From a plasmid, in assembly GCF_058153355.1 (NCBI RefSeq), contig NZ_JBLWLY010000002.1: a stretch of 64,000 nucleotides of DNA. One strand, 5' to 3'. A model generated the notes under the pieces. It was not told the DNA's origin and searched no databases. It saw only the letters and a list, made by a program, of their open reading frames with translations. How positions within the stretch are numbered: position 1 is the first letter of the stretch; each line of letters opens with the position of its first letter. The position numbers and the translations under genes were made by a program. Below are positions 4,260 to 56,348 of this stretch, in pieces.

Positions 4260-4312
4260 TCTTACCCAGCAATAGTGGACACGCGGCTAAGTGAGTAAAC
4301 TCTCAGTCAGAG

Positions 4313-10954: not shown

Positions 10955-10973
10955 ATGCGGGGAGTATAGTTAT

Positions 10974-11048
10974 ATGCCCGGAAAAGTTCAAGACTTCTTT
11001 CTGTGCTCACTCCTTCTGCGCATTGTAAGTGCAGGATGGTGTGACTAA
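10974..11048 (+). CDS. tap: Tap/RepA6 leader peptide
   Basis: 24-aa [27 protein letters not shown]; stop overlaps the GTG start of repA1. Confidence 0.75.
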
Positions 11049-21899: not shown

Positions 21900-22583
21900 A
21901 TGTCCCGTTTTGTCCTTGGTAACTGCATCGATGTTATGACGCGTATCCCTGATAACGCCATTGATTTCATATTAACTGACCCGCCATATCTCGTCGGTTT
22001 TCGTGACCGTTCCGGGCGCACCATCGCCGGAGATAAAACCGATGAATGGCTGCAACCGGCCTGTAATGAAATGTACCGCGTGCTGAAAAAAGATGCGCTG
22101 ATGGTGAGCTTCTATGGCTGGAACCGCGTCGATCGCTTTATGGCCGCCTGGAAAAATGCGGGATTCAGCGTGGTTGGCCACCTGGTATTTACCAAAACCT
22201 ACACATCGAAGGTCGCATATGTGGGCTATCGCCACGAATGCGCTTACATCCTGGCAAAAGGGCGTCCGGCGCTGCCTCAGAAGCCATTGCCCGACGTGCT
22301 GGGCTGGAAATATTCAGGCAACCGCCATCACCCGACGGAAAAGCCCGTTACCAGCCTGCAACCGCTCATTGAGAGCTTCACACACCCGAACGCGATTGTG
22401 CTGGACCCGTTTGCAGGCAGCGGCTCAACCTGCGTCGCCGCCCTCCAGTCCGGACGCCGGTATATCGGTATCGAGTTGCTTGAGCAGTATCACCGTGCCG
22501 GGCTGCAACGCCTTGCCGCCGTGCAGCGGGCCATGCAGCAGGGGGCCGCGAATGATAACTGGTTTGAACCGGAGGCGGCGTAA
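21900..22583 (+). CDS. orphan DNA methyltransferase (N6-adenine/N4-cytosine type)
   Basis: 227 aa with DPPY motif (LTDPPYLVGF) and SAM-binding-like FAGSGST; no adjacent restriction gene seen. Confidence 0.8.
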   Translation: MSRFVLGNCIDVMTRIPDNAIDFILTDPPYLVGFRDRSGRTIAGDKTDEWLQPACNEMYRVLKKDALMVSFYGWNRVDRFMAAWKNAGFSVVGHLVFTKTYTSKVAYVGYRHECAYILAKGRPALPQKPLPDVLGWKYSGNRHHPTEKPVTSLQPLIESFTHPNAIVLDPFAGSGSTCVAALQSGRRYIGIELLEQYHRAGLQRLAAVQRAMQQGAANDNWFEPEAA

Positions 22584-22805
22584 ATGAACTATGCCGGACA
22601 CGAAAAACTTCGCGCCGAAGTGGCGGAGGTGGCCAACACCATGTGTGACCTTCGGGCCAGGCTGAACGATATGGAGCATCGCTGTCGCTTTGATTCCGAT
22701 GTGCTTGTTGAACGCCTGACACGCCAGACGCTGTATCGCGCCAATCGCCTGTTCATGGAGGCATATACCGAAATTCTGGAACTGGATTCCTGCTTCAAAG
22801 ATTGA
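22584..22805 (+). CDS. hypothetical protein
   Basis: 73-aa ORF immediately after the methyltransferase gene. Confidence 0.4.
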   Translation: MNYAGHEKLRAEVAEVANTMCDLRARLNDMEHRCRFDSDVLVERLTRQTLYRANRLFMEAYTEILELDSCFKD

Positions 22806-23251
22806 GGGGAGAGAGTATGTACGGAACATGCGAAACGCTCTGCCGGGAGCTGGCAGCAAAGTATCCGGGAGACACGCCGTTGATGCTGGTTGTCTGGTCC
22901 CCGGAAGAGATTCAGGCCCTCGCTGACGGAATGGATATTTCCCTGTCCGATCATGAAATCAGGACCGTCCTGGCGCGCCTGGAGGACATCCCGGAAGACC
23001 AGCGAATTGAGTCCGGTATTTCTTCCTCCGCGGCGATGGAGATTATCAGCAACGTGAGCGAAAACCGCCAGGTGACCGTCCCTGCTGAACTGCTGGCGTC
23101 CCTGATTCAGACCGCTGAACAGGCATTGTGGAAGCGTGAATGGGCCGCCCGTGATTACGGCCTCGCCGTCCCGGAATGCGTTACCCGCCGTCAGGCGGTG
23201 GTTAATCAGGCCCGCATCCTGCTGAAAAACAACACGCACGAAAACGACTGA
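22802..23251 (+). CDS. hypothetical protein
   Basis: 149-aa ORF; start overlaps the upstream stop. Confidence 0.5.
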   Translation: MRGESMYGTCETLCRELAAKYPGDTPLMLVVWSPEEIQALADGMDISLSDHEIRTVLARLEDIPEDQRIESGISSSAAMEIISNVSENRQVTVPAELLASLIQTAEQALWKREWAARDYGLAVPECVTRRQAVVNQARILLKNNTHEND

Positions 23252-23296
23252 TGTTATCGCCGCCTGCGGGCGGCGATACAGGGAGAACGATTAATC

Positions 23297-24073
23297 ATGA
23301 ACGAAAACACAACGCTGAATGCACTGATTTGTCGTCACGCCCGAGACCTGCTGCTGGCGCAGGGCTGGCCGGAAGAGACGGATGTTGACCAGCGGAACCC
23401 GAAGTATCCGGGCTGGATCAGCATTTATGTTCTGCTGGATGCGCCCCGGCTGGCGACGTTACTTATCAACCGTCACGGCGGCGCACTGCCGCCACTCCTG
23501 GCCTCCGCCATTCACAAACTGACCGGAACCGGGGCGGAACTTGTACTGTCCGGCAGTCAGTGGCAGTCGCTGCCGGTACTTCCGGCAGACGGAACGCAGG
23601 TGTCTTTCCCGTATGCCGGTGAGTGGCTGGCAGAGGATGAAATCAGGGCAGTTCTTGATGCGGTACGCGATGCAGTACGCTGTGTCAGTTACCAGGTGGC
23701 AGAAGATACGCGGCGTATCCGGGCGGCGCTGACCACAACCGGTCAGACGTTACTGACCCGCCAGACGCGCCGCTTTCGCCTGGTCGTGAAGGAAAGCGAT
23801 CACCCCTGCTGGCTCGATGAGGACGACGAAAACCTGCCCGTGGTGCTCGATGCCATCCTGAACCGGGGCGCACGTTTTTCGGCGGTGGAAATGTATCTGG
23901 TCAGCGATTGTATTGAGCATATCCTGTCCAGTGGGCTGGCCTGCGATGTGCTGCGTATACCGGATGAACCGCCCCGCCGGTGGTTTGACCGTGGTGTTCT
24001 GCGGGAGGTGGTCCGGGAAGCCCGGGCCGAAATTCGCAGCATGGCGGATGCCCTGGCAAAAATCCGGAAATGA
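23297..24073 (+). CDS. hypothetical protein
   Basis: 258-aa ORF, same strand as the preceding block. Confidence 0.5.
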
Positions 24074-24375
24074 TGACGATGGCGGGGAAAATCTATGGTC
24101 ACCCCCGTTTTTGCAACACTGATTTTTGATTAATGGTGGGCTTGCTTAAATCTATCCGGCGTCTCTGTGGGCAAGGGATGCCCGCGCCTCGATGAGTTCC
24201 GCACCTGATAATCCTAAAAATCCCCTCGGCTTCAGTGAGCCATTTTCCCCTGTTAGGTTTTTAATCAGGTCGATTTGCCGTTCATGTCATCAATAATCAA
24301 TCTTCGCAAAACCAGACGGTAACTTGTATCTTATTGTTTGCAATAAGCTAATTGAGTTTTGTCAGCATCTATATA

Positions 24376-25266
24376 TCAGGCCTGATATTCTTTTTGCTGA
24401 GTAGTGATTGCCCAGGCAATTCGGGCCAGTTTATTTGCCAGAGCGCAGGCAACCACATTCGAATGCTTCTTGTTGAGTTGCTCCCGAACCCACTCAGCAA
24501 GTTTTCCATGCTGGCGTTCAAGCTGCATCATGAATGAGCGGGCACACTGAACCAGTAACCGGCGTAAATTTTTATCACCTCGCTTACTGATACCCAACAG
24601 AGTCGATTTTCCTCCAGTGCTATACTGCCGGGGAACGAGCCCTGTGGAAGCCGCAAAATCTCTGCTGCATGAAAACAGTTTCCCGTCACCAAGTTGCGAC
24701 GATAGTAAGCTGGCAGTAATCGGCCCAACACCAGGAATTGTCATAATGCGCTGAGCGGTATCATCAGCGTTGATTGACTGACTTAATTCTGATTCCAGCT
24801 CTGCTATTTGCTCAACAAGGTAAAGGTAGTGGGTATGCAACCTCACCAAAAGGCGGCTCAGATATTCGGGGATTTCGTGTTCAGCCAATACGAGAGACAA
24901 CCGTTTTATTACGGCATCCCCTGTCGGCAGGCTGATTCCAAATTCCAGCAGGAAACCGTGGATCTGGTTGGTTGTTTTCACCTTATCTCTGATGAGCGAT
25001 TCTCTGACCCGGTGTAATGCCCTCATTGCCTGCTGGGTCTCAGTTCTTGGTTGGACAAAACGCATTGATGGTCGTGAAGCCGCTTCACATATGGCTTCTG
25101 CATCAACAAAATCATTCTTATTACTTTTGACAAACGGGCGAACGAACTGTGGAGAAATCAGCTTAGTTTCATGTCCAAAATCAGAGATACGGCGAGCCAA
25201 AAAGTGTGCACCCGCACAGGCTTCCATTACAACAACTGAGGGCGGACATGTTGCCAGAAACTGCAT
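24376..25266 (-). CDS. IS110-family transposase; 5' end overlapped by IS66 terminal repeat
   Basis: 296-aa ORF; upstream in frame to about 25365 encodes YLIGIDLGKHSFHIH but no start codon is left. Confidence 0.7.
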   Translation of the reverse strand: MQFLATCPPSVVVMEACAGAHFLARRISDFGHETKLISPQFVRPFVKSNKNDFVDAEAICEAASRPSMRFVQPRTETQQAMRALHRVRESLIRDKVKTTNQIHGFLLEFGISLPTGDAVIKRLSLVLAEHEIPEYLSRLLVRLHTHYLYLVEQIAELESELSQSINADDTAQRIMTIPGVGPITASLLSSQLGDGKLFSCSRDFAASTGLVPRQYSTGGKSTLLGISKRGDKNLRRLLVQCARSFMMQLERQHGKLAEWVREQLNKKHSNVVACALANKLARIAWAITTQQKEYQA

Positions 25267-25451
25267 CAGTTTAGTACGGGTAAATTTTTTACGCAGAAGA
25301 GCCTTACCAGACTTGTCTTGACAATGAATGTGGAAGGAATGCTTTCCGAGATCGATACCAATAAGGTAAGCGTAAACTGACCGCCGTATGTAGCCATTAA
25401 GCCTGTATTGGTAACGTAGGTGCCCACCTTTTCAACTAGTGGACACCTGTT

Positions 25452-25871
25452 ATGGAACAGAAAGCATTATCCGCAGAACCCCGCAGATCATTTTCAAATG
25501 AGTTTAAACTTCAAATGGTTAAACTGGCTTCACAACCAGGAGCCTCTGTTGCCCGTATTGCCCGGGAACACGATATCAATGATAACCTGCTGTTCAAATG
25601 GCTCAGGCTCTGGCAGAACGAAGGGCGCATATCGCGGCGTCTTCCGGTAACAACCTCTTCTGACACTGGCGTTGAATTATTACCTGTGGAGATAACGCCG
25701 GATGAGCCGAAAGAACCGGTGGCTGCTCTTACTCCGTCTTTATCTACTCAGACTACAGTTAGTGCCAGCTCCTGCAAGGTGGAGTTCCGTCACGGTAACA
25801 TGACGCTGGAAAATCCTTCACCAGAGCTGCTCACAGTGTTGCTCCGTGAACTGACCGGGAGGGGACGATGA
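25452..25871 (+). CDS. IS66 OrfA
   Basis: 139 aa, IS66 orfA-like (FKLQMVKLASQPGASVARIARE). Confidence 0.8.
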   Translation: MEQKALSAEPRRSFSNEFKLQMVKLASQPGASVARIAREHDINDNLLFKWLRLWQNEGRISRRLPVTTSSDTGVELLPVEITPDEPKEPVAALTPSLSTQTTVSASSCKVEFRHGNMTLENPSPELLTVLLRELTGRGR

Positions 25872-26218
25872 TCTCACTCCCGTCAGGCACCCGCATCTGG
25901 CTCGTTGCTGGGATAACCGATATGCGTAAGTCTTTCAACGGGCTGGGTGAACAGGTACAGCATGTGCTGAATGATAATCCCTTCTCCGGTCACCTGTTCA
26001 TCTTCCGTGGCCGACGGGGTGACATGATTAAAATCCTGTGGGCTGATGCTGATGGTCTGTGCCTGTTCACCAGACGCCTGGAGGAAGGCCAGTTTATCTG
26101 GCCTGCTGTGCGTGACGGCAAGGTATCCATTACCCGCTCGCAACTGGCAATGCTCCTCGATAAGCTGGACTGGCGTCAGCCAAAAACATCCCGCCTTAAC
26201 GCACAGACAATGTTGTAA
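25868..26218 (+). CDS. IS66 TnpB
   Basis: 116 aa, LPSGTRIWLVAGITDMRKSFNGL. Confidence 0.8.
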   Translation: MISLPSGTRIWLVAGITDMRKSFNGLGEQVQHVLNDNPFSGHLFIFRGRRGDMIKILWADADGLCLFTRRLEEGQFIWPAVRDGKVSITRSQLAMLLDKLDWRQPKTSRLNAQTML

Positions 26219-26248
26219 AAATGTCATGGCCGGATTATAAAAACGGCC

Positions 26249-27840
26249 ATGAATCAAAAATACCTCATTCGCATTGCAGAACTGGAATGCCAGCTCCGTC
26301 AGAAAGACCAGCAACTGAGTCTGGTTGAAGAGACGGAGGCCTTCCTGCGCTCTGCACTGGCCCGCGCCGAAGAAAAGATCGAAGAAGATGAACGGGAAAT
26401 AGAACATCTGCGGGCTCAGATAGAAAAACTGCGCCGGATGCTGTTCGGTACCCGTTCTGAAAAACTGCGTCGTGAAGTTGAACAGGCTGAGGCCCTGCTG
26501 AAACAACGCGAACAGGACAGTGATCGTTACAGTGGGCGGGAAGACGATCCGCAGGTTCCCCGCCAGTTGCGACAGTCTCGTCATCGTCGCCCGTTACCGG
26601 AGCATCTGCCCCGCGAAATAAATCGCCTGGAGCCAGAAGAAAGCTGTTGCCCGGAGTGTGGCGGTGAGCTGGATTATCTGGGGGAAGTCAGCGCAGAACA
26701 ACTGGAACTGGTGAGCAGCGCTCTGAAAGTGATCCGCACAGAACGGGTAAAAAAAGCCTGTACAAAATGTGACTGCATCGTTGAAGCACCGGCACCATCC
26801 CGTCCGATAGAGCGTGGTATCGCGGGCCCGGGGTTACTTGCCCGCGTGTTAACGGGAAAATACTGCGAACACCTGCCACTGTATCGTCAGAGTGAAATTT
26901 TTGCCCGTCAGGGTGTCGAACTGAGCCGTGCATTACTCTCCAACTGGGTTGACGCGAGCTGCCAGTTAATGACGTCGCTGAATGATGCCCTGTACCGTTA
27001 TGTGATGAACAGCCGCAAAGTTCACACTGATGACACACCAGTAAAAGTGCTGGCACCGGGCAGGAAGAAGGCGAAAACAGGATATATCTGGACGTATGTC
27101 CGGGATGACAGGAATGCCGGTTCGCCAGAGCCTCCGGCGGTCTGGTTCGCCTACTCACCGGACCATCAGGGTAAACATCCGGAGCAGCACCTTAGTCCCT
27201 TCCGGGGTATCCTGCAGGCAGATGCGTTTAATGGTTACGATCGGCTGTTCAGTGCCGAACGAGAAGGCGGCGCGTTGACGGAAGCAGGATGCTGGGCTCA
27301 TGCGCGGCGCAAAGTCCACGATGTATATATCAGTACCAAAAGCGCGACAGCGGAAGAAGCACTGAAACTAATCGGTGAGCTGTACGCCATCGAGCACGAA
27401 ATACGCGGGTTGCCGGTGTCTGAACGCCTGGCGGTCAGGCAAATGCAGAGTAAACCGCTACTGACTTCCCTGTATAAGCTGATGCAGAGAAAGAACACAC
27501 GTTATCGAAAAAATGCCGTCTGAGAGATGCGTTCCGGTATATCAGGAAGCACTGGGTTGTGTTGTGCAATTTCAGTGATGATGGTCTGGCTGAGGCGGAT
27601 AATAATGCCGCGGAAAGAGCGCTTCGTGCAGTCTGTCTCGGAAAGAAAAACTTTATGTTCTTCGGCAGCGATCACGGTGGAGAGCGTGGTGCGCTACTGT
27701 ACGGGCTGACCGGCACCTGCCGACTGAACGGTATCGATCCGGAAGCGTATCTGCGCCATATCCTGAGCGTACTGCCGGAATGGCCTTCCAACCGTGTTGA
27801 CGAACTCCTGCCATGGAACGTAGCACTCACCAATAAATAA
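26249..27840 (+). pseudogene. IS66 TnpC transposase, frameshifted near 27520
   Basis: ORF 26249..27523 continues in another frame as ORF 27559..27840. Confidence 0.7.
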
Positions 27841-28086
27841 GCGTCAATACGGTGCTCCGTTGACGCTTACGGTGACGGGCTGTGCCTCCTGACCAAACGG
27901 CTGGAGCGTGGGCGTCAGCCCGTGATGGCAAAGTGTTCCTTCGGACACGGCAAAAGCGTTCGCATACCTGCTGAAACAGTGGGTATGCACTGAACGTGTA
28001 CTGCAGTAATGGCTGGGTGGAAATCGACAACAACATCGCAGAGAACGCCTTACGGGGAGTGGCCGTAGGCCGGAAAAACTGGCTCT

Positions 28087-29910
28087 GTGTGTCACGAAGG
28101 AGTACTTATGGCAACAATGTGAAAATTGCAGCATAAGTTATCCATGCTCTGAGGTGGGTGGAGGTGGGCCCTCCGGTCAGGGTTTACAGGAGCACTGACC
28201 AAACGACCCGGTGCTGCTTCATTCTAAGGAATGAGGTGGTGAGCGACTCGGGAAAAGGCAGAGATCTACTGTCACGTGGGGTTCGGGAAGCTGAACGAAA
28301 GTAAACTGTCCGATGAAGCATCGAAATCTTAGATGATGTCAAAATGGGGCCGTACAGCCGTCCCCTGATAAGCGCAGAAGACACCTGCTTACTGACTGCG
28401 CGGCATCCGGTGTGAAGGCAGCAGGATCCCGGGCCAGACCATCTCAGGGAACGTGAGAACCTGTTTCCGGCACGTATCGGGAAACAGGGGCGGACCCATT
28501 CGTAGTAGTGATGAAAGATCTGTAATGGGTCTGGAGCGAAGGGATGGGGATCACATTCATTGCAGAAGACACAACCCAAAAGGGGATGACGTAACTGATG
28601 CAACGAAAATCATTTGAAATACCAAAAGCACTGGTCTGGGCATCATATCTGGATGTGCGTCGCAACAAGGGAGCCCCCGGATGCGACGGGCAGACTTTGA
28701 AAATGTTCGACCAGCAACGTGATGGCAATCTATACAAGATCTGGAACCGGCTATGTTCGGGAACATGGTTTCCGCCACCAGTGCTGGAAAAACGGATCCC
28801 GAAGTCGAATGGCAAGGAACGCATTCTGGGGATCCCAACAGTATCCGATCGAATTGCTCAGGGAGCGATAAAACTTTTCATGGAAGAAAAGCTTGACCCG
28901 ATTTTCCATGCTGATTCATATGGTTACCGACCAGGCAAATCAGCTCATGACGCTCTGAAACAATGTGCCATCCGGTGCTGGCGTTATAGCTGGATACTGG
29001 AAGTGGACATCAGTGCGTTTTTCGACCATGTGAGACATGATCTGGTGCTCAAAGCTCTGGAACACCACGGGATGCCTAAATGGGTCATCCTGTACTGTCG
29101 ACGCTGGATGGAAGCGCCAATGCAGAGTTGTGAAAATGGAGAATTAATAACCCGAACACGAGGCACTCCGCAGGGCGGGGTCATTAGTCCACTACTTGCT
29201 AACTTGTTCCTTCACTATGCATTTGATTTGTGGATGGAAAGAGAATATCGGGGGGTACCGTTTGAGAGGTACGCTGACGATATTGTAGTACATTGTTCAC
29301 GAATGAGTGATGCAACAAGGCTGAAGAACAGGTTATCGGAGCGCTTCTCGGAAGTCGGGCTGGTCCTGAATGCAGGGAAAACGAATATCGCCTACATTGA
29401 CACGTTTAAAAGGAGAAACGTCGCAACGAGTTTCACCTTTCTCGGATATGACTTCAAAGTGCGTACGCTGAAGAATTTCAAAGGCGAACTGTACCGAAAA
29501 TGCATGCCGGGTGCGTCAAATGCAGCAATGCGCAAAATAACAGAAACAATCAAGAAGTGGCGTATACATCGCTCAACAGCTGAGAGTTTGCTGGATTTTG
29601 CGAGGCGCTACAATGCGATAGTGAGAGGCTGGATCGAGTACTACGGAAAGTTCTGGTCCAGAAATTTCAACTATCGACTGTGGAGTGCAATGCAGTCACG
29701 TCTGCTCAAGTGGATGCAGTCTAAATACAGACTTTCGAACCGGAAGGCTCAGCGAAAGCTGACGCTGGTAAGGAAGGAGTATCCGAAGCTATTTGTTCAC
29801 TGGTATTTACTACGTGCATCAAATGAGTGATCAAGAGCCGTATGACGCGAGAGTGTCACGTACGGTTCCGTGAGCAGCCGGGGAGTGAAATTCTCTCCGG
29901 CTGACTCGAC
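28087..29910 (+). mobile_element. bacterial group II intron, copy 2
   Basis: same sequence as copy 1 in opposite orientation; begins gtgtg after ...aaaaactggctct and ends ...gactcgac before tcgcgggttctgac. Confidence 0.8.
28598..29830 (+). CDS. group II intron-encoded reverse transcriptase/maturase
   Basis: 410 aa, identical to ORF 4768..6000. Confidence 0.85.
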   Translation: MQRKSFEIPKALVWASYLDVRRNKGAPGCDGQTLKMFDQQRDGNLYKIWNRLCSGTWFPPPVLEKRIPKSNGKERILGIPTVSDRIAQGAIKLFMEEKLDPIFHADSYGYRPGKSAHDALKQCAIRCWRYSWILEVDISAFFDHVRHDLVLKALEHHGMPKWVILYCRRWMEAPMQSCENGELITRTRGTPQGGVISPLLANLFLHYAFDLWMEREYRGVPFERYADDIVVHCSRMSDATRLKNRLSERFSEVGLVLNAGKTNIAYIDTFKRRNVATSFTFLGYDFKVRTLKNFKGELYRKCMPGASNAAMRKITETIKKWRIHRSTAESLLDFARRYNAIVRGWIEYYGKFWSRNFNYRLWSAMQSRLLKWMQSKYRLSNRKAQRKLTLVRKEYPKLFVHWYLLRASNE

Positions 29911-30156
29911 TCGCGGGTTCTGACAGCGGTGGTGAACATGCTGCGGTGTTGTACTCGCTGATCGGCACATGCCGTCTGAACAATGTGGAACCAGAAAAAT
30001 GGCTGCGTTACGTCATTGAGCATATCCAGGACTGGCCGGCAAACCGGGTACGTGATCTGTTGCCCTGGAAAGTTGATCTGAGCTCTCAGTAAATATCAAT
30101 ACGGTTCTGACGAGCCGTTTACTCAGAAAGAGAGCGATACGCTACAGCTGGAGCTG

Positions 30157-38032: not shown

Positions 38033-38836
38033 ATGCCGATGAAAATAACGCATCATTATAAATTCTTCCTTTCTGCTGTTATTTTGGTAACCATATTTTA
38101 TTCGGCAGTGCCATATGCAAATATTCTTGATGGCGGCGAAATTCAGTTTAATGGCTATGTTACTGATGAAGCACCCAAATGGGCCTGGCAGATAAGTTCT
38201 CCCGACCAGACTTGGTCTGTGGATACTGCCGATGCCCGTACAGAGAACGGGCAACTGGTTTTTAATTTGCATGATAAAGGGGCTCTGCCATTTCTGGAGG
38301 GACATCTGCATGATGTGGCTGAGCGCGGTGGTCCCGGATTCACGCCATTTATTACTTTCAGCAGTAACGGACAGCCTTTTACTGTGACGGAAGGAAATGG
38401 TGCCTCAGCACAGCACTTTCGCGCCTCTGTCCCGGTGCGTGACCCGGAGACGGGGAACGTGTCGGGACAGCTTTTTTTTACCCTGAATCAGGGAATGGCG
38501 GTCAGTACCGGCAGACAGGACGACGGGGCATCCGTACCGGCTGGCATGTCGCTGGTCAGTGGACAGAGTGTGACGGATGTACAGCCGGGAAGTCTGCCAC
38601 AGGGGCTGAAAGCCCGACTCTCTTCCCTGTTACTGATGAATCAAAATTTTGGCAATGGCATGAATGCGGTGGATAACGGACAGGTTATCAACCAGGGGAT
38701 ACTGACTGACGGTCGGGTGATGGATCTGGCTGCGGCATATGCCTCTGCGGTGTCGGATTTTGAACTGCGGTTGCCGGCAGAGGGTACACCTGCAGCATGG
38801 CAGGCGGGGCTGAATGTGACGGTTACAGTACAGTGA
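38033..38836 (+). CDS. minor fimbrial subunit (FaeH-like)
   Basis: 267 aa with signal peptide; position after major subunit. Confidence 0.6.
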
Positions 38837-38865
38837 TGGTTGCAGGGATATAAGGAGAGAAGAGA

Positions 38866-39630
38866 ATGAAAAAGGTGGCGTTGTTTCTGTTTGCTGCTAG
38901 CCACCTGCCTTCCTGTGTACTGGCTTGGAACACGCCAGGAGAAAATTTCAGCGGAGAGCTTAAGCTGGAAGGCCCGGTGACCAGTACCCGTAACCCGTGG
39001 GTATGGAAAGTCGGGCAGGGAAATGAAGGTCTGGAGGTTAAACAGAGCCGCGGTGTTCGTGGCGGTGGGGAGGGGATTCAGGTCGAACTGCCGGCGATGA
39101 CCGTTTTACTGGGAAAAACCACCCTGACCACACCGGCAGGACGTGAGGGGCTTTCACCCCGGGTCAGTTATGGAAAAGGCACTGAGGGGTTTTCACTTGT
39201 ATGGACAGCGCCTGGCATGGCTGAAGTGACGCTACCTGTCACCGGAGATAATAATGCCCGGGCAGGCACATTTGTTTTCAGAATTCAGGCTGTGGGGGTG
39301 TTGCGCCATGTGCAGGGCGGACAACCGGTGTATGTTGGTATGTATGACGACCTGAATACGAATGGTTTGCCAGGTGAAAGCACTGCCATGAAGGTTTCTG
39401 ATATTCCGGGCGTTCTGCAGAAGATGTTCAGTGGGGAAGGCCCCGGCTGGCTTCAGACAATGACACTCAGTGGTTATTCAGGGGTGAGTCATTTCAGTGA
39501 TGACTTCCTGCGCCAGGTTGAAGGTGTGTATGGTGCACAGACTGTGGCTGGCAGTGGTGAATTACGGCTGAACGGCGAGATGCCGGAACACTGGAGGGTG
39601 TCACTGTCAGTAAACATTGAATATCAGTAA
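38866..39630 (+). CDS. minor fimbrial subunit (FaeI-like)
   Basis: 254 aa with signal peptide ending AWNTPGE, similar N-terminus to the major subunit. Confidence 0.6.
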   Translation: MKKVALFLFAASHLPSCVLAWNTPGENFSGELKLEGPVTSTRNPWVWKVGQGNEGLEVKQSRGVRGGGEGIQVELPAMTVLLGKTTLTTPAGREGLSPRVSYGKGTEGFSLVWTAPGMAEVTLPVTGDNNARAGTFVFRIQAVGVLRHVQGGQPVYVGMYDDLNTNGLPGESTAMKVSDIPGVLQKMFSGEGPGWLQTMTLSGYSGVSHFSDDFLRQVEGVYGAQTVAGSGELRLNGEMPEHWRVSLSVNIEYQ

Positions 39631-39953
39631 GGAGCAGGAGTGCGTTTTATAATCCGGAGATAAGGAACGTCGGTTACTGTAAGATTGGGGAGTTGTGTTG
39701 ATAGCGGGAGTGGCTGGAATAAGTGGTATACATAGATAAAAATTAAAACTATCACTATTTGAGGAGTTTTTTCCTGCTCTCCATGGGCTTTATAGCTCAC
39801 AAAAAATAGAATAATATTATTAATTATTCTGCTTTTTTATGGGCATTCCCCCTTGAAAAATGAGTTTGTGCCAGAATATTATTAATGTGTTTTTTGTGAT
39901 TTACTAATCAAGGATTGCTGAATAGCATCCAGTACTGAATATTTTGTTCAATT

Positions 39954-41180
39954 ATGTCAGGAACCATACCGAAAATCAAAACAGGTGAAAATGTTCTGTC
40001 TGCAGCCATTCAGCGCATTGAATGGCTATTTGGAACGTTTCCTTCTGTCTGCTTGTCCTTTTCTGGTGGTAAGGATTCTACCGTGCTTTTCCATCTTGTG
40101 TCCGAAGTGGCCCGCAAAAAGAGGCGTCGTTTTTCGGTATTGTTCATTGACTGGGAAGCACAATATCAATGCACCATTACGCATATTCAGAAGATGCAGA
40201 AGATGTACCTGGATGTGACGGACAGGTTTTACTGGGTGGCCCTTCCCCTGACTACGGTAAACGGTGTCTCTCAGTTTCAGCCGGAGTGGATATGCTGGGA
40301 GCCTGGTGTGACCTGGGTTCGCCATCCACCGGAATATGCTATTACGGATATGGCGTATTTTCCCTTTTACCGATATGCCATGACCTTTGAGGAATTTATC
40401 CCGGCGTTTTCCTCCTGGTTTGCCAGGGATAAATACCTGGTGGCTGTTCTGACCGGAGTCCGGGCAGATGAGTCCCTCAACCGCTTTATGGGACTGGTAT
40501 CCCGTCGCAAACAGAGATATGCCGATGATAAACCCTGGACTACGGCATCACCTGAAGGGTTTTATTACACCATGTATCCGTTGTATGACTGGAAAGCCCG
40601 TGATATCTGGATATATAACGCCAGAACCCGAGCTATCTACAATCCCCTGTATGACCTGATGCACCGTGCCTGTGTGCCGTTACGCAACATGCGTGTCTGT
40701 GAGCCTTTTGGTCCTGAACAGCGTAAGGGGCTGTGGCTTTATCATGTTCTGGAGCCGGAAACCTGGGCCAAGATGTGTGAGCGGGTGTCGGGTGCTGCCA
40801 GCGGGGCGCTTTATGCCAATGAGAGCGGTGCCTATTTTGCCCTGCGTAAGCGTATCACGAAGCCGCCTCATCATACCTGGCGTAGCTATGCGATGTTCCT
40901 GCTGGATGTGATGCCGGAAAGAACGGCAGAACATTACCGTAACAAAATTGCTGTCTACCTGCGCTGGTATCAGACGCGAGGCTTCCCGGATGACATTCCG
41001 GATGAACAGGAGAATGACCTGGGGGGCCGGGATATCCCGTCCTGGCGACGCATCTGTAAAACACTCATAAAAAATGATTTCTGGTGCCGGACCCTCTCCT
41101 TCAGTCCGAACAAAGCCCGGCACTATGAACGTTACCTGCAGCGTATGAAGGAAAGGAGGAAGGAATGGGGGATTCTGTGA
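39954..41180 (+). CDS. PAPS-reductase-family (PP-loop) protein, IbrA-like
   Basis: 408 aa with PP-loop motif SFSGGKDS near the N-terminus. Confidence 0.7.
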   Translation: MSGTIPKIKTGENVLSAAIQRIEWLFGTFPSVCLSFSGGKDSTVLFHLVSEVARKKRRRFSVLFIDWEAQYQCTITHIQKMQKMYLDVTDRFYWVALPLTTVNGVSQFQPEWICWEPGVTWVRHPPEYAITDMAYFPFYRYAMTFEEFIPAFSSWFARDKYLVAVLTGVRADESLNRFMGLVSRRKQRYADDKPWTTASPEGFYYTMYPLYDWKARDIWIYNARTRAIYNPLYDLMHRACVPLRNMRVCEPFGPEQRKGLWLYHVLEPETWAKMCERVSGAASGALYANESGAYFALRKRITKPPHHTWRSYAMFLLDVMPERTAEHYRNKIAVYLRWYQTRGFPDDIPDEQENDLGGRDIPSWRRICKTLIKNDFWCRTLSFSPNKARHYERYLQRMKERRKEWGIL

Positions 41181-41803
41181 CACCGGAGATACTTGGCAAC
41201 ATGATTCGTCAGTATTTCAGTCAGGTACGAACTGAAAAAGAGAGCATACAGGCTCTGAATCATCTGCGCAGAGTGCTTCATGAGGTCAGTCCTTTTGCAC
41301 AGGAGCCTGTGGACTGTGTGTTGTGGGTGAAAGCGGATGAGGTGGTGGCCAACGATTACAACCCTAATGTCATGGCACTAGGTGAGAAAAAACTACTGAA
41401 ACAGTCTCTGGAGAAAGATGGTTTCACACAACCGGTGGTGGTGTCAGAGGAGAAGAATCATTATCTGGTGGTGGATGGTTTTCATCGTCAGTTACTGGGG
41501 CGGGAAGCAGATACAGGAAAACGCCTGAGGGGCTGGTTGCCTGTAGTCTGTATTAATCCGGAGAGAAAGGGACAGGCCGCACGTATTGCCGCGACCATTC
41601 GACATAACCGGGCCAGGGGGAAACACCAGATCACTTTAATGTCTGATATTGTCAGGGATCTTTCACGTCTGGGCTGGACGAATGAACGTATTGGTACAGA
41701 GCTGGGAATGGACCAGGATGAAGTGCTGAGGCTGAAACAGATTAGCGGGCTGACAGAGTTGTTTCAGGAAGAGGATTTCAGCCCGGCTTGGACGGTTCGT
41801 TGA
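41165..41803 (+). CDS. ParB-like nuclease-domain protein, IbrB-like
   Basis: 212 aa with VVDGFHR (ParB/DGQHR-type motif); start overlaps upstream stop. Confidence 0.7.
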   Translation: MGDSVTPEILGNMIRQYFSQVRTEKESIQALNHLRRVLHEVSPFAQEPVDCVLWVKADEVVANDYNPNVMALGEKKLLKQSLEKDGFTQPVVVSEEKNHYLVVDGFHRQLLGREADTGKRLRGWLPVVCINPERKGQAARIAATIRHNRARGKHQITLMSDIVRDLSRLGWTNERIGTELGMDQDEVLRLKQISGLTELFQEEDFSPAWTVR

Positions 41804-42030
41804 TGCTGTTAAATATGGGCGGTATTTCTGAAAGTTGATACTTTGGGTAGAAAAAATGATACCGGAAACTATGAAGGATGTGCTTGTCAGGTGACTAGAC
41901 ACCATAGGTCTTAGGCTTTGATAACGGGATAAGATGAGCTGCTTTTCTCATACCATCAGGTGTGATGATGTCGCAGATTTACAAAATCTGATTGATTCTA
42001 AAGATGTATAAGTAAGGAAAAAGTTTTGAT

Positions 42031-42915
42031 ATGAAAAAACAGATATTTATTAATAATAAACCTCCTGTAGTCCCTTATTCAGGGGCGCACGCGAAAATAT
42101 TTAAATACATTGAAATCCCTCTGCCGTTTTTCTACTTTATCTATACATCAGGCGAACCATTCCACATGTCTGTCCAAAATACTGTTATTTATGTATCAAA
42201 ATACAATGGTATATTTATTAATAAATCAGTTCCTTTTTCTTTTTTATTTGACAGAGATATATCTGTTCTTCAAAGAAGAGATATTTGTGTTGTGCGATTT
42301 ACGTCAGAGGAGATAAGTGAACATAATGTTTTATTTGATCATGACTTTGAACGATTAAAAAAAATTTCCAAAGCTCAGCTTATATCTCCCGATTATGTTT
42401 TGATTGATTTTTCTAGTGGGGGGGAGGATGAATCCTACGCAATGTCCTGGTTAATATCTCAGTGTACTCATCAGTATACAGATAATAAAAAGACGGAGAC
42501 AGATGCTATTTACGATAAAGTGCGGAGTTCTTATTTGCTTTCATGTATTCTGCAAAAAAACGAAAATGTTGGGCTTATTCTTCATGCACCATCATTTGTT
42601 TCTGTGTCTGAAAAAATCGCCAGAATTGTGATGGCAAATTACTCCCGTAACTGGAGTACTTCCGAGTTGGCCAGTGCGGTTTTAATGAGTGAATCTTCTT
42701 TAAAAAGAAGAATGTACAAAGAGGTCGGTTCTATAAGTACATTTGTACATAAAATAAAGCTTACAGAAGCTATCAGGAAATTACGAAGGACAAATACTCC
42801 CATTTCTGTCATATCATCTGAGTTAGGTTACAGTTCACCATCGTATTTTTCTAAAGTTTTCTTTAAATATTTAAAGACATACCCTCAAAACATAAGGAAG
42901 AAAAATGGTCGGTAA
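42031..42915 (+). CDS. AraC-family transcriptional regulator (Rns/AggR-type position)
   Basis: 294 aa, low-GC gene; C-terminal region AraC-type HTH. Confidence 0.75.
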   Translation: MKKQIFINNKPPVVPYSGAHAKIFKYIEIPLPFFYFIYTSGEPFHMSVQNTVIYVSKYNGIFINKSVPFSFLFDRDISVLQRRDICVVRFTSEEISEHNVLFDHDFERLKKISKAQLISPDYVLIDFSSGGEDESYAMSWLISQCTHQYTDNKKTETDAIYDKVRSSYLLSCILQKNENVGLILHAPSFVSVSEKIARIVMANYSRNWSTSELASAVLMSESSLKRRMYKEVGSISTFVHKIKLTEAIRKLRRTNTPISVISSELGYSSPSYFSKVFFKYLKTYPQNIRKKNGR

Positions 42916-43102
42916 TGTCACCAATTAGGAGGACTTGCCGGGCCGCGTTGCAAGGATGAGCCCGCATTACGATTATTTCGTGCTCGATGGCGTACAGCTC
43001 ACCGATTAGTTTCAGTGCTTCTTCCGCTGTCGCGCTTTTGGTACTGATATATACATCGTGGACTTTGCGCCGCGCATGAGCCCAGCATCCTGCTTCCGTC
43101 AA
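42863..43102 (-). pseudogene. IS66 TnpC internal fragment
   Basis: 79-aa ORF matching [42 protein letters not shown] of copy B. Confidence 0.6.
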
Positions 43103-43144
43103 CGCGCCGCCTTCGTAAGCGGCTCGCCAGAACCGTATTGATAT

Positions 43145-44716
43145 TTACTGAGAGCTCAGATCAACTTTCCAGGGCAACAGATCGCGTACCCGGTTTGCCG
43201 GCCAGTCCTGGATATGTTCAATGACGTAACGCAGCCACTTTTCTGGCTCCACATTGTTCAGACGGCATGTGCCGATCAGCGAGTACAACACCGCAGCATG
43301 TTCACCACCGCTGTCAGAACCCGCGAAGAGCCAGTTTTTCCGGCCTACGGCCACTCCCCGTAAGGCGTTCTCTGCGATGTTGTTGTCGATTTCCACCCAG
43401 CCATTACTGCAGTACACGTTCAGTGCATCCCACTGTTTCAGCAGGTATGCGAACGCTTTTGCCGTGTCCGAGTGACGCGACAGTGTTTTCATCTGTTGCT
43501 GTATCCAGTCATACAGTGACTGCATCAGTGGCGCGGCTCTGGCTTTTCTTGCCGCCAGACGCTGTTCTGCTGAACAGCCCCGGACCTCTGCCTCGATGGC
43601 ATACAGTTCACCGATACGCTGCAGGGCTTCCGTGGTGATGTCGGTGGGCACTCTTGCATGCACATCGTGGATTTTTCTCCGGGCATGAGCCATACATGCG
43701 GCTTCCGTTATTCTGCCGGATTCGTACAACGCCCGGTAACCACCGTAAGCATCGGCCTGAAGCACTCCGCTGTAACCGGCCAGATGATTCTGTGGATGGA
43801 TACCTTTCCGGTCCGGGCTGTACGCGAACCAGACCGCCGGAGGCATTTCCGAACCGGCGTTACGGTCATCACGAACGTAGACCCACAGCCGGGCAGTCCT
43901 TGTTTTACCGCTGCCCGGCTCCTGGACCGGAACGGGGATATCATCGGCATGGACTTTACCGGGCATCAGCACATACTGGCGCAGGATGTCATACAGCGGT
44001 TCCAGCAGTTCAGCAACAGCACCTGTCCAGCGCCCCAGTGTGGCACGGCTCAGCTCCACGCCCTGACGACGGTATATTTCTGACTGGCGGTATAACGGCA
44101 GATGGTCTGCATATTTTCCAGCGACAACATGGGCCAGAAGCCCCGCTCCGGCATAACTGCGTGCAATGGGTTTTGAAGGCACCGGAGCCTGCACGATATG
44201 GTCGCACCGGCAACAGGCCAGTTTCGGACGTTGTGTTTCGATAACCTTAAAGGCGCTGCTGATAAGCTCCAGTTGCTCTGACACATCACATCCCAGAGAA
44301 CTGAGTTCGCCACCACAGGCCGGGCAGCATTCCTCTTCCGGACGGATGACCCGGGTTTCACGGGGAAGTGAGGCAGGTAACGGTTTACGGGCTGAAGACT
44401 GGCGCAGGGGAGATGGCAGTACCGGGTCATATTGCTCACCCAGCGTTTCCGCCATTTCTTCCTGAAGAGCGCTGATTCGCTCCTGTGCTTCCTGTATCTG
44501 CCGTTCGGTTTTTGCACGAAGTTTTTCTGAGCTTTTACCGAACTGCATGCGCTGCAGTTTTGCAACCAGCGCCTTCAGCCGGTTGATTTCGGAAGCATAA
44601 GCCGCCACCCGCTGTGAGAGCAGGCGGTTGTATTTCGCCATCTGGCGGATGGTGTCCTGTTGCGTCTGCAACAGTGCCCGCAGGCGGGCATTCTCATGAG
44701 CAAGTGAGGTGTCCAT
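43145..44716 (-). CDS. IS66 TnpC transposase
   Basis: 523 aa, intact. Confidence 0.85.
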
Positions 44717-44735
44717 ATCCTCACTTTACAACGGG

Positions 44736-45083
44736 TTATATGCGGATGCCAGCGCGTTCCGTTCGTTTCGGGTGTTTCCAGTCGATGCCCTCAAGAAGCA
44801 TGGATAACTGGGCCGGAGTAAGGTGCACCTTGCCGTCACGGGTGACCGGCCAGACGAAGCGGCCCCGCTCCAGGCGTCTGGTGAAGAGGCACAGTCCGTC
44901 ACTGTCAGCCCACAACACTTTTATCTGGTCACCCCGGCGTCCGCGGAAGATGAACAGATGCCCGGAGAACGGGTCATCCTTCAGGACGTTCTGAACTTTT
45001 GAGGCCAGGCCGTTAAAGCCATTTCGCATATCGGTGATACCTGCAACCAGCCAGATACGCGAACCTGCAGGGAAAGATATCAT
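44736..45083 (-). CDS. IS66 TnpB
   Basis: 115 aa. Confidence 0.8.
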   Translation of the reverse strand: MISFPAGSRIWLVAGITDMRNGFNGLASKVQNVLKDDPFSGHLFIFRGRRGDQIKVLWADSDGLCLFTRRLERGRFVWPVTRDGKVHLTPAQLSMLLEGIDWKHPKRTERAGIRI

Positions 45084-45694
45084 CAGTGGCTACTCCCTTT
45101 TATTTCGCGGATAAGTATCTGTAATAACGCCAGCGTCAGTTTACCTTTAAGCCTGAGAGTTCCGGCCGGCAGAACCAGCTCATAGCACAGACTGTCGGAC
45201 GGTGTATTTATCTGCTCTGGTTCCTGTGCCGGAGCCGGGATTTTATTATCCGGCTCCGGCGTTAACGTCACGGGAAGTAGCGATGTTTCATGTTCGCCGG
45301 GCGGCTGCAGGCCGCCGTTACGCCAGAGATGCCGCCAGTTAAAGAGCAGGTTATCGTTGATTCCATTCTCACGAGCTATTTGTGCGACACAGGCACCGGG
45401 TAAAAGAGTTTGCTGAACAAGTCTCCATTTAAACTCCGGTGAAAATCGGTTCCGGCGGGGTTTCTCTGCTTTCACAGGCTGAGTCACGGTCGGGGTTGAA
45501 GGATATCGCCCCGGGAAAAGAGCCCGGGCCAGTTGCCCGCAGGAATATTCGCCGGAAAGAGGCCAGTCAGTGAATACCTGGTGAAATCGCCTCACCAGAG
45601 AAAAAATGGCGGTTTTGCTGACACCAGTCTGCGCAGAAATGCGCGGGTACGACAGTGACTCGTCAAATCTCAGCTGTAGCACACGCAGGATCAA
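45083..45694 (-). CDS. IS66 OrfA with unusual 90-aa N-terminal extension
   Basis: C-terminal 110 aa orfA-like ([28 protein letters not shown]); N-terminal part unlike other copies. Confidence 0.5.
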   Translation of the reverse strand: MILRVLQLRFDESLSYPRISAQTGVSKTAIFSLVRRFHQVFTDWPLSGEYSCGQLARALFPGRYPSTPTVTQPVKAEKPRRNRFSPEFKWRLVQQTLLPGACVAQIARENGINDNLLFNWRHLWRNGGLQPPGEHETSLLPVTLTPEPDNKIPAPAQEPEQINTPSDSLCYELVLPAGTLRLKGKLTLALLQILIREIKGSSH

Positions 45695-45732
45695 TTCCGG
45701 ATTATCTGCCAGTACCGCCTTTCGTGCATTCG

Positions 45733-45987
45733 GACGGTGGCGGTTACATGATGCCGGATGGCGACCGTTTTTATCTGGTCAACAGTGAAAACTGGTTTGA
45801 CCGCACGGTCAGCGCCGATGCCGCAGGCATCATTCTTACCTCCCTTGTGATTAACCGCCTGTTGTGGCTGTACCACGACAGCGGGGATGCGGGACTGACA
45901 CACCTGTACCGGATGCGCGATGCGCAGTTGTGGAGCCACATCGAATTTCACCCCGAATGTAACGCGATTTACGCGGCACTGGACTGA
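45733..45987 (+). pseudogene. KlcA/ArdB-family antirestriction gene, 3' fragment
   Basis: C-terminal SDGGGYMMPDG...SADAAGI...AIYAALD resembles KlcA; no matching N-terminus upstream. Confidence 0.55.
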
Positions 45988-46061
45988 TTAACGGACGGGG
46001 CGGCAATGCCGCCCCTGTAAAGGAGACGAGAACATGTACTGTTAAAGAAATTATCCGCGAA

Positions 46062-46451
46062 GTGCTGGATACAGACGTGCCGGACAGTGAATGCGTTTTT
46101 GCCGTGGTGCTGACCCGTGGGGATGTGCGTCACATAGCCCAGGACTGGAGTCTGACAGACGATGAGCTGGAAACCGTCATGCAGCGGCTGGACGATGCCT
46201 TTGAGCATGGTGCGGATGTCAGCGTTGTTCACGACGTTGTTCGTGAACTGATGGAAGAAAAGCGCGCCAGTCGTCATGTGACAGTCCCGGCGGTGATGCT
46301 GGAAAAAGTGATGGCGCTGGCAGGCAGTGAAATGAAGCGCCTGTATGCCGTCGGGAGTGAGAACGGGGGCGACAGTGACGCATTCGTCAGGGAGGAACGC
46401 GAAGCAATGGACGTTGTGTTACAGGCGCTGGACGGGGAGACGATGTCATGA
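46062..46451 (+). CDS. hypothetical leading-region protein
   Basis: 129-aa ORF. Confidence 0.5.
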   Translation: MLDTDVPDSECVFAVVLTRGDVRHIAQDWSLTDDELETVMQRLDDAFEHGADVSVVHDVVRELMEEKRASRHVTVPAVMLEKVMALAGSEMKRLYAVGSENGGDSDAFVREEREAMDVVLQALDGETMS

Positions 46452-46639
46452 ATATCAGCACAGAAACCTGCGAAATTCTGCGTAATTACAGGGCCGTGAT
46501 TAATGCGCGGCGTCGTGAAATGGGGCAGAAACCGCTCACCACCGCGCAGATTGTTGATGAAATCTGCGATTTTGTGGCGAATCAGCAGGCGGTTTTCCTC
46601 GGTGGTCACTACATCCTTCAGGGCAGCAGAAACAGGTGA
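46448..46639 (+). CDS. hypothetical small protein
   Basis: 63-aa ORF overlapping the upstream stop. Confidence 0.4.
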   Translation: MNISTETCEILRNYRAVINARRREMGQKPLTTAQIVDEICDFVANQQAVFLGGHYILQGSRNR

Positions 46640-46827
46640 TACAGGGGCAGGCGGTTGAGGCCGCCTGTCAGCCCGCGCGAAAACCCCTGGCAGGCTGGCG
46701 CCTGCCGGAAGGGAAGCGGGCCACGCTGGCGCGTCGCCCGTTACCCTTCCCGTCTGTGATGTGTCTGACTCAGGAGTGTTTCTTTCTTATGTTATGGAAC
46801 TGTTCCTGATGTTGTTGTTCCTTTATC

Positions 46828-47295
46828 TGCTGCTCTGATTCTGACTACTGCAGTGTTGTTCTGTCTGCCGGGCGCACCTTCGGCTCCCGGCTGCCTGGCG
46901 GCATCTGGTCGTCAGGCCCGACTCCGACAGGCAGCTGCTGGCGCACCTGCCAGTCTCCGCCGAACCCGCTGGCGCGGTTTCGGGCTGTCGCTACGGTCCG
47001 ATGCGTGAAAACCCCGGGCTTGCAGCGACCGTTCCGGTCGCGCCGCCTCTGTCGCGCCGTGGCCTGCGCTCCTGGCATCCCGGCAAAAGGCCGCCGGGAT
47101 GTAAGGCGCAACGCCGTTTCGCAAACCGCGCTTCACGTCGTTGCGGCGGGTCCCTGCCCGTTGTTGTGTCCGGTGCCATTCACCTGTTTAAGCCCCTTGC
47201 GGCGAAGGTTCTCAAACAGGTGATGGTGAATACCGGAGGGAACAAAAGGCCGGTCCCCGCAAAACGTCAAAACCGCGGCTCCCGAAACTCAACAG
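46828..47295 (+). repeat. leading-region repeat upstream of ssb (Frpo/ssi-like single-strand promoter candidate), copy 1
   Basis: GC-rich structured sequence repeated at 51998..52640; the ORFs predicted inside are identical between copies and look spurious. Confidence 0.55.
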
Positions 47296-47334
47296 ATGAT
47301 GGGGGCTGAAAACATCAACAGAAGGAGACACATC

Positions 47335-51721: not shown

Positions 51722-51997
51722 CAACCTGGAGGCGGGCGTAGGCCCGCCTTTTCAGGGCTGATGCTGGTCTGACTGCACTGAAGCGCCTTTATAAAGGGGC
51801 TGCTGGTTCGCCGGTGGCCCCTTTCTCCTTGCTGGCATTGTGCGGGCATGAACAACCAGGCTGCCAGGAAGGCCGTTTCCCTTCGGGAACGGGGAAGAAC
51901 GCGCGCCTGCGGCGCCCGTTCTTCTCCTCCGTCTTCTCTGTTTATGGCCAGTTGTCAGAAATGACATTACCTTTCCCGTGATTATTCTCTTTTTCTT

Positions 51998-52640
51998 CCT
52001 GCTCTGATTCTGACTACTGCAGTGTTGTCCTGTCTGCCGGGCGCACCTTCGGCTCCCGGCTGCCTGGCGGCATCCGGTCGTCAGGCCCGACTCCGACAGG
52101 CAGCTGCTGGCGCACCTGCCAGTCTCCGCCGAACCCGCTGGCGCGGTTTCGGGCTGTCGCTACGGTCCGATGCGTGAAAACCCCGGGCTTGCAGCGACCG
52201 TTCCGGTCGCGCCGCCTCTGTCGCGCCGTGGCCTGCGCTCCTGGCATCCCGGCAAAAGGCCGCCGGGATGTAAGGCGCAACGCCGTTTCGCAAACCGCGC
52301 TTCACGTCGTTGCGGCGGGTCCCTGCCCGTTGTTGTGTCCGGTGCCATTCACCTGTTTAAGCCCCTGTCGCCGGGGGCAAAGACAGCCACAACCTGCCGC
52401 ACTGACTGTCTAGGGTAAATGAACAGCCCACAAAATTTTTTACCCAAAACCCGGTAAAAAATTTTGCGTTCTGCCCCGGACAGGTGCGTCAGGCCGTGGC
52501 AGTGATGCCCCTTGCGGCGAAGGTTCTCAAACAGGTGATGGTGAATACCGGAGGGAACAAAAGGCCGGTCCCCGCAAAACGTCAAAACCGCGGCTCCCGA
52601 AACTCAACCGATGATGGGGGCTGAAAACCAGAGAGAGGAG
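51998..52640 (+). repeat. leading-region repeat, copy 2, with about 130-bp internal insertion
   Basis: same sequence as 46828..47295 plus an extra block (tgtcgccgggggcaaagacagcc...gtgatgcccc). Confidence 0.55.
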
Positions 52641-55095: not shown

Positions 55096-55479
55096 ATGGC
55101 TAAGGTGAATCTGTATATCAGCAATGATGCTTATGAAAAAATAAACGCGATTATTGAAAAACGTCGACAGGAGGGGGCGAGAGAAAAAGATGTCAGTTTT
55201 TCAGCAACGGCTTCAATGCTTCTTGAACTGGGTCTTCGTGTATATGAGGCTCAGATGGAGCGCAAAGAGTCTGCATTTAATCAGGCCGAGTTTAATAAAC
55301 TACTTCTTGAATGCGTTGTAAAAACACAGTCATCAGTAGCGAAAATTTTGGGTATTGAGTCTCTCAGTCCTCATGTCTCAGGAAATCCAAAGTTTGAATA
55401 TGCCAATATGGTTGAAGATATCAGAGAGAAGGTGTCGGTTGAGATGGAAAGGTTCTTTCCAAAAAATGATGATGAATAA
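55096..55479 (+). CDS. traM: TraM
   Basis: 127 aa MAKVNLYISNDAYEKINAIIEKRRQEG... Confidence 0.9.
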   Translation: MAKVNLYISNDAYEKINAIIEKRRQEGAREKDVSFSATASMLLELGLRVYEAQMERKESAFNQAEFNKLLLECVVKTQSSVAKILGIESLSPHVSGNPKFEYANMVEDIREKVSVEMERFFPKNDDE

Positions 55480-55670: not shown

Positions 55671-56348
55671 ATGTGTGCGATGGATACTAGAGAAAGAGCA
55701 CTCATACGTCAATCAGGCCTGCCGGAAATTATTTTATCCGCAAAATATCCAGTCTGTGTCCGCACAGAGTCTACCGTTCCCGGTGACCGGATTATCGCCG
55801 TGAACAGTCTGGATGGTGCCCTGACCAATAATGAGCAGACCGCCTCCGGCGGTGTGGTGGTTGCCACCGTCAACAAAAAGCCCTTTACGTTCATTCTGGA
55901 AACAGAACGTGGTCTGAACCTTTCCATTCAGGCCGTTCCCCGTGAAGGCGCGGGGCGTACCATTCAGCTGGTCAGTGACCTGCGCGGAACCGGAGAAGAA
56001 GCCGGTGCGTGGGAAACGTCCACGCCTTACGAATCCCTGCTTGTGACCATCAGCCAGGCCGTCCGTGGCGGAAAATTACCCGCAGGCTGGTATCAGGTCC
56101 CGGTGACAAAGGAAACCCTGCAGGCCCCGGCGGGGCTGTCTTCAGTGGCAGATGCCGTATGGACGGGGAATCATCTGAAGATGGTCCGCTTTGCCGTGGA
56201 AAATAAAACGCTGTCTGCCCTGAATATCCGGGAAAGTGACTTCTGGCAGCCGGGAACCCGTGCCGTGATGTTCAGCCAGCCTGCCAGCCAGTTACTGGCA
56301 GGTGCGCGCATGGATGTGTATGTCACCCGTGACGGGGAGGGCAACTGA
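55671..56348 (+). pseudogene. traJ'-'traK fusion left by deletion of traJ through traE
   Basis: ATG at 55671 with RBS gaggagg; first about 36 codons TraJ-like, then TraK-like sequence from [13 protein letters not shown] to the end. Confidence 0.65.

Follow-up and report, generated by a model that had tools for sequence, protein, structure and literature searches.

The closest described relatives of the element examined here are the IS66-family insertion sequences of the ISCro1/IS679 group. ISCro1 is a 2699-bp element of this family (PMC6650469). Two full-length copies served as references, one in the Escherichia coli plasmid pEC012-3 (NZ_CP119580.2) and one in the E. albertii plasmid p1RM9974 (NZ_CP043270.1). 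In both, the element measures 2704 bp (2033-4736 of either reference sequence) and has the same gene order and lengths, with a tnpA of 651 nt, a tnpB of 348 nt and a tnpC of 1572 nt. The p1RM9974 copy is flanked by a perfect 8-bp target duplication, GTTGACTC, and its transposase is named 'IS66-like element ISCro1 family' by PGAP. A different element, ISSfl4 of the Shigella pINV plasmid pCP301, is also of the IS66 type, with three ORFs (ORF1-ORF3, CP0204-CP0206) and a long ORF1 of 224 aa. For the antirestriction gene klcA (KlcA/ArdB), the reference was the plasmid pAUSMDU00014361_01, which has an intact F-like leading region and carries the full gene at 5831-6256, encoding 141 aa (WP_001198928.1).

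We analysed a stretch of plasmid DNA of 64,000 nucleotides, referred to below as the window, in which an element of this group, copy C, abuts klcA. The features at this site are as follows.

43115-45731, minus strand: copy C, a truncated ISCro1/IS679-type IS66-family element (blastn against pEC012-3 and a further reference, L004)
43115-43139, plus strand: right terminal inverted repeat (IRR), GTAAGCGGCTCGCCAGAACCGT..., with GTAAGCG at 43115
43145-44716, minus strand: tnpC, intact, a 523-aa DDE transposase (Pfam DDE_Tnp_IS66, 348 bits)
44736-45083, minus strand: tnpB, intact, 115 aa (Pfam TnpB_IS66, 135 bits)
45083-45733, minus strand: long-form tnpA frame of 216 codons (NCBIfam NF038385, 283.6 bits; 97% amino-acid identity to the pEC012-3 TnpA)
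45731-45732: novel joint, ...CGTGCATTC then GGACGGTGG... (three-way comparison of the window, pEC012-3 and the klcA of pAUSMDU00014361_01)
45732-45987, plus strand: klcA remnant, nt 171-426 (aa 58-141 and stop; 96.8% identity to pAUSMDU00014361_01 6000-7471)

Using blastn, we found that copy C was 96.9% identical to 2033-4649 of pEC012-3, which equals positions 1-2617 of the full element, and 96.1% identical to L004. It retains 2617 bp of the 2704-bp full element, with its right end intact and its left end shortened by 87 bp. The IS66-type gene order tnpA-tnpB-tnpC was evident from the Pfam matches and the ORF layout. The tnpC product also matched zf-IS66, LZ_Tnp_IS66 and DDE_Tnp_IS66_C, and tnpC and tnpB had the same lengths as their counterparts in pEC012-3 and p1RM9974 (WP_000624622.1 for tnpB). 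DNA identity to these references was 96-98.6%, the long form of TnpA was found in both, and the IRR was identical to that of the reference element, its extent of about 25 bp being taken from the comparison of the right and left inverted repeats. On these likenesses copy C can be placed in the ISCro1/IS679 group. Unlike the copies in pEC012-3 and p1RM9974, however, it lacks the last 87 bp, and the 8-bp target duplication of the family is absent. Of the imperfect terminal inverted repeats that belong at both ends and start with GTAAGCG, the right one was present and the left one (IRL) absent, and CCGCCTTC stood beside the IRR where GGACGGTG followed the joint, as would be expected because one end has been deleted. 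Copy C is thus a truncated derivative and no complete member of the IS66 family.

The joint itself could be placed to the nucleotide. Homology to the IS ended at 45731 and homology to klcA started at 45732, the only overlap being a single C at 45731 common to both parents, a microhomology of 1 nt that favours no particular mechanism. After ...CGTGCATTC the reference elements run on as ATCTTAAATG... for 87 more bases, ending ...GATGCGCTTAC, whereas the window runs on with GGACGGTGGCGGTTACATGATG instead; the intact klcA of pAUSMDU00014361_01 reads ...CGCCTGCC then GGACGGTGG... at nt 170/171. With the missing 87 bp went the IRL (GTAAGCGCATCATTTAAACCGTC... on the IS strand), the leader of tnpA and the first two letters, AT, of its ATG. 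When 45083-45790 was compared by megablast with plasmids and complete E. coli genomes, thousands of matches were obtained, of which all those to the IS part stopped at query base 649 (window 45731) and all those to query bases 649-708 were annotated antirestriction genes. As a sequence junction the joint is deterministic, and a chance model is inapplicable to it.

A preliminary description of this DNA had seen no terminal repeat before the klcA-like sequence and had proposed a deleted or degenerate left end, naming a normal IS66 terminal repeat in the interval as the finding that would speak against it. Our searches bore this out. GTAAGCG, the opening motif of all IS66 ends in the window, was absent from the minus strand between 43121 and 57406, a range that includes 12 kb past the joint, and the 23-nt left inverted repeat of the full element had no match across the window with up to three mismatches allowed; no normal IS66 terminal repeat was found in the interval. 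The IS sequence next to the break (GAATGCACGAAAGGCGGTAC, IS strand) had 7 of 20 positions in common with the IRL, no more than chance would give. Of these two proposals for the left end, deletion proved correct, the shortfall against the 2704-bp reference being exactly 87 bp.

The best explanation for this arrangement, and a very probable one, is that a native long-TnpA element of the ISCro1/IS679 type lost its left end, and klcA its 5′ part, by illegitimate deletion. The comparisons establish both breakpoints, the two parents and the native origin of the OrfA extension: copy C started as such an element, with a long-form TnpA of 216 aa that probably contains two helix-turn-helix (HTH) motifs. 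We infer that one or more deletions not made by a transposase then extended from inside the IS into klcA. The deletion or deletions would have taken the 87 bp of the left end, any DNA flanking it on the outside and a minimum of 565 bp of backbone, including the region upstream of klcA and klcA nt 1-170. Within the 87 bp, the left inverted repeat, the tnpA leader (presumably with the promoter and ribosome-binding site) and two of the three bases of the start codon would have been removed. Neither the missing 87 bp nor the 5′ end of klcA was found elsewhere in the 64-kb window, and an inversion in place of a deletion was rejected on that ground. No ancestor with an intact left end at the site of the joint was found.

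We considered whether another mobile element had made the joint, through an adjacent deletion of the IS26 or IS1 type or through recombination between copies later lost, or whether it arose by one-ended (pseudo-end) transposition of the IS66 element. The region is full of IS66, IS110 and group II intron sequences, and pINV-like plasmids are as a rule rearranged by IS elements; even so, a route of this kind appears improbable, given that neither a foreign element nor a footprint was found at the joint, that CCGCCTTC and GGACGGTG form no target duplication and that the internal break is unlike an IS66 end. Pseudo-end transposition in particular was rejected, there being no target duplication and no inverted-repeat-like sequence at the break.

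We found the same joint in 0 of 72,556 plasmids (PLSDB) and 0 of 5,426 complete E. coli genomes, the best coverage being 92% and confined to the IS part. A relative with ISCro1 in or adjoining klcA, which would show as 100% two-piece coverage, was likewise absent from these plasmid and E. coli genome searches. The joint was also absent, as an exact 24-mer, from 100,044 GTDB representative genomes, and an exact-protein index gave no match for the 203-aa TnpA, the 110-aa hybrid ORF or the 79-aa KlcA remnant. A 20-mer scan of metagenomes returned three matches on unrelated contigs, two at 65-69% G+C and one at 49%, and these were judged to be due to chance and rejected as true occurrences. In one of the three, a soil contig of 69% G+C (C688J18823_10007649, 3715-3740), the joint was matched exactly over 26 nt, in an unrelated ORF of 199 aa.

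The occurrence of the junction in no other public sequence searched, together with the several near-identical IS66 segments in the window, a classic cause of misassembly, would be compatible with a chimeric join made during assembly. We regard such an artefact as very unlikely, as the joint lies 649 bp from the end of the intra-window repeat (45082/45083) and at no repeat boundary, and both of its sides are unique within the window. The feature is real, and is an ordinary junction between a truncated IS and a pseudogene, built of known components: a scar of plasmid decay. That the left terminal repeat is still present in degenerate form, the other proposal of the preliminary description for the left end, has nothing found in its favour and is scarcely credible, since klcA homology of 96.8% begins at the base directly after the IS homology and leaves no room for a decayed repeat, and the break shows neither GTAAGCG nor any agreement with the IRL beyond that given above. 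The third suggestion of that description, that the extended OrfA is read-through into foreign, non-IS DNA, has a negligible probability: the other IS66 copies in the window do have OrfA proteins of 139 aa (25452-25871) and 142 aa (63136-63564), and the open frame does enter antisense klcA for 16 codons before a stop, with no start codon among them, but all of the extension bar the first codon lies within 649 bp that are 96-98.6% identical to full-element tnpA and present in hundreds of plasmids and genomes, the curated long-TnpA model is matched from position 2, and there is conservation at the protein level in ORF1 of ISSfl4.

The extension is instead native to the ISCro1/IS679-type element, as judged from comparisons at the DNA and protein levels. 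In the full-length elements of pEC012-3 and p1RM9974, the RefSeq tnpA encodes 216 aa from an ATG at the site matching window 45733-45731. These three bases read CCG in the window because the break falls inside the first codon, which is the only codon of the long tnpA outside the IS homology; with the leader deleted as well, the gene has lost its start codon and translation signals. The mechanically called OrfA ORF (45083-45694, minus strand) runs from a TTG at 45694, the first usable start, and comprises 203 aa, of which residues 80-137 form an HTH_Tnp_1 domain. When the window was translated in the RefSeq tnpA frame, the protein read P-NARKAVLADNPELILRVLQ... and retained the 97% identity to the pEC012-3 TnpA. 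NF038385 (IS66-like accessory protein TnpA, 190 positions) was matched over positions 2-189, a full-length match well above its cut-off of 150 bits, while the short TnpAs of the other copies (139 and 142 aa) matched positions 84-189 only and fell below the cut-off. The preliminary description had put the extension at 90 aa; this OrfA is indeed longer than those of the other copies, by about 75-80 aa.

At the DNA level, the extension was 98.6% identical to the tnpA of full-length ISCro1-type elements with a 216-aa TnpA. The tnpA segment, at a coverage of at least 80% of the query, was present in 420 plasmid records and 454 E. coli genomes, and among the matches listed such coverage always meant the whole tnpA segment. 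Furthermore, the N-terminus of ISSfl4 ORF1 aligned with the extension (LRLRF..L..I....G.S...I..L..RF.....WPL), although ORF1 and the copy C TnpA share only 38% protein identity, which marks ISSfl4 as a different element. The extension gave sub-threshold helix-turn-helix matches in Pfam and PDB sequence searches (Sigma70_r4_2, E = 0.0018), and it is probably a second DNA-binding HTH.

The loss of the left end would be expected to affect both the mobility and the expression of copy C. With one end only, the element would no longer be mobilisable by an IS66 transposase. The tnpA-tnpB-tnpC operon would lack start signals of its own and would probably be silent, barring read-through from outside. 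A consensus scan revealed no sigma-70-like promoter on either strand of 45400-46500. Given this empty scan and the loss of the leader and start codon of tnpA, expression of the intact tnpB and tnpC from here is improbable. An in-frame TTG is nevertheless still present at 45694, and transcription may enter from further upstream. In annotation, copy C should appear as an ISCro1/IS679-type IS66 remnant that is 5′-truncated and immobile and whose long tnpA is inactivated, rather than as one whose OrfA is aberrant.

On the other side of the joint, the retained part of klcA was 96.8% identical to the gene of pAUSMDU00014361_01 and occupied the same place, upstream of a DUF1380 gene, ssb and a ParB-like gene. 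In contrast to that intact gene, the window klcA has lost its upstream region and codons 1-57, and with them its start codon and ribosome-binding site, and is fused to antisense IS sequence. It matched Pfam Antirestrict (PF03230) with 70 bits (cut-off 25) over profile positions 13-92 of 92, and contains aa 58-141 only of the complete protein of about 141 aa, with no start of its own. The truncation had been recognized in the preliminary description, which placed the klcA-like coding sequence from about 45733 and regarded the 5′ half as lost; the start is at 45732, and the loss amounts to nt 1-170 of 426, or 40%. The remnant is most likely a pseudogene and should be marked as such, and the plasmid appears to have lost the anti-restriction function of klcA.

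The joint also has a place in a larger rearrangement, of which two further features are listed here.

24094-45730: 21.6-kb block replacing 565 bp of leading-region backbone (comparison with pAUSMDU00014361_01)
42961-43114, minus strand: tnpC fragment of a second, different IS66-family element (type B), with copy C inserted in it at its right end (Pfam DDE_Tnp_IS66, ORF 42863-43102)

In the comparison with pAUSMDU00014361_01, reference positions 2442-5434 corresponded to window 21104-24093 and 6000-7471 to window 45731-47197. The block between them is a mosaic of remnants of IS110 and IS66, a group II intron, an operon for K88-like fimbriae, genes for PAPS reductase and a ParB-like protein and an AraC-type regulator, and truncated and nested IS66 pieces are common across the window. 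Bounded by IS sequences, this block sits in the leading region of a plasmid that is F-like and related to pINV, and the joint between copy C and klcA is its right boundary. The left boundary of the block is formed by a fragment of an IS110-family transposase (24094-25365), which lies in a stem-loop just after ycfA (the ycfA side ending GGCGGGGnAAATC). In Shigella pINV plasmids this ycfA/IS110 junction recurred at 99.3-99.5% identity. The IS110 fragment loses its 5′ part to a complete type-B IS66 of 2505 bp at 25366-27870.

The type-B fragment beside the IRR of copy C corresponds, in reverse complement, to window 27263-27416, and 141 nt of the two are 100% identical. Nearby, 38261-42949 was 98.4% identical to the enteroinvasive E. 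coli (EIEC) plasmid NZ_CP065616.1, where a type-B IS66 tnpC likewise harbours an ISCro1-type copy, flanked by an 8-9-bp duplication. The nesting of copy C is a separate event, because its site and orientation differ from those in NZ_CP065616.1. That plasmid, which has the same AraC neighbour, was rejected as a direct ancestor on account of the different type-B site and the opposite relative orientation. The AraC-family regulator (42031-42915, 294 aa) is low in G+C and adjoins the PAPS-reductase/ParB-like genes and the K88-like (fae) fimbrial operon; EIEC and Shigella pINV plasmids have regions 97.8% identical to it. In NZ_CP065616.1 the AraC gene is annotated as shorter, at 474 nt, and abuts an IS3-family insertion.

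Several other features of the window were noted. A group II intron encoding a 410-aa reverse transcriptase/maturase (TIGR04416, 393.9 bits) was present at 4688-6511 and 28087-29910, at the same site near the 3′ end of an IS66 tnpC in two inverted copies, which form a perfect inverted repeat of 2142 nt (4475-6616 and 27982-30123), 21 kb apart. The tra operon is internally deleted at about 55706-55768, where traM (55096-55479) is followed nearly at once by the body of traK; the absent reference segment, pAUSMDU00014361_01 10835-13247, contains traJ, traY, traA, traL, traE and the 5′ part of traK. Judging from this deletion, self-transmission of the plasmid is improbable, and the loss of klcA, taken with the nearby traJ-traE deletion, would fit a plasmid without autonomous transfer. 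In addition, two pairs of direct repeats of 98-99% identity (46819-47118 with 51988-52287, and 47192-47313 with 52507-52628) have their copies upstream of ssb and within the psiB/psiA part of the leading region, and are possibly single-strand promoter (Frpo/ssi-like) elements of F-like plasmids.

The transposase genes of copy C were also compared with those of another IS66 copy in the window.

61171-63639: copy D, a complete IS66 element with a short TnpA, 2469 bp

We found that 43115-45082 of copy C and 61171-63138 of copy D were identical at 1964 of 1968 nt (99.8%), a stretch that spans the IRR, tnpC and tnpB. The first 1800 nt (43115-44914) were 100% identical in the two copies, and all four mismatches fell within 44915-45074. 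The similarity stopped exactly at the overlap of the tnpA stop and the tnpB start (45082/45083), beyond which the modules carrying tnpA and the left end (45083-45731 in copy C and 63139-63639 in copy D) were unrelated at the DNA level. The preliminary description implicitly treated copy C and the others as one IS, which holds for tnpB, tnpC and the IRR, as shared with copy D, but not for the module of tnpA and the left end. Copy D differs from copy C in being complete, in its IRL and in its short TnpA of 142 aa, which has 39% amino-acid identity to that of copy C; elements of its type also occur in the E. albertii plasmid pESA134_2 (1572-4041 of the reference sequence). Both the long- and the short-TnpA architectures were found in other hosts, where their tnpB-tnpC regions were about 95.7% alike.

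The pattern in copies C and D is suggestive of a swap of modules and, after it, recent homogenisation. IS66-family elements might exchange a cassette of tnpA and the left inverted repeat at the tnpA-stop/tnpB-start overlap, a possibility that we put forward tentatively and that leans slightly towards the doubtful. If it were true, one set of TnpB and TnpC would serve two left ends and two DNA-binding TnpA proteins, and the truncated copy C would still be engaged in gene conversion with an active copy. Such apparent modular exchange of tnpA and the left end between IS66 elements is the sole point of some general interest at this locus. Just outside copy D, 10 bp from its left inverted repeat, an orphan right end (IRR) of the ISCro1 type was found in inverted orientation at 63650-63710; owing to this 61-bp piece, copy D had seemed to possess perfect terminal repeats of 62 bp.
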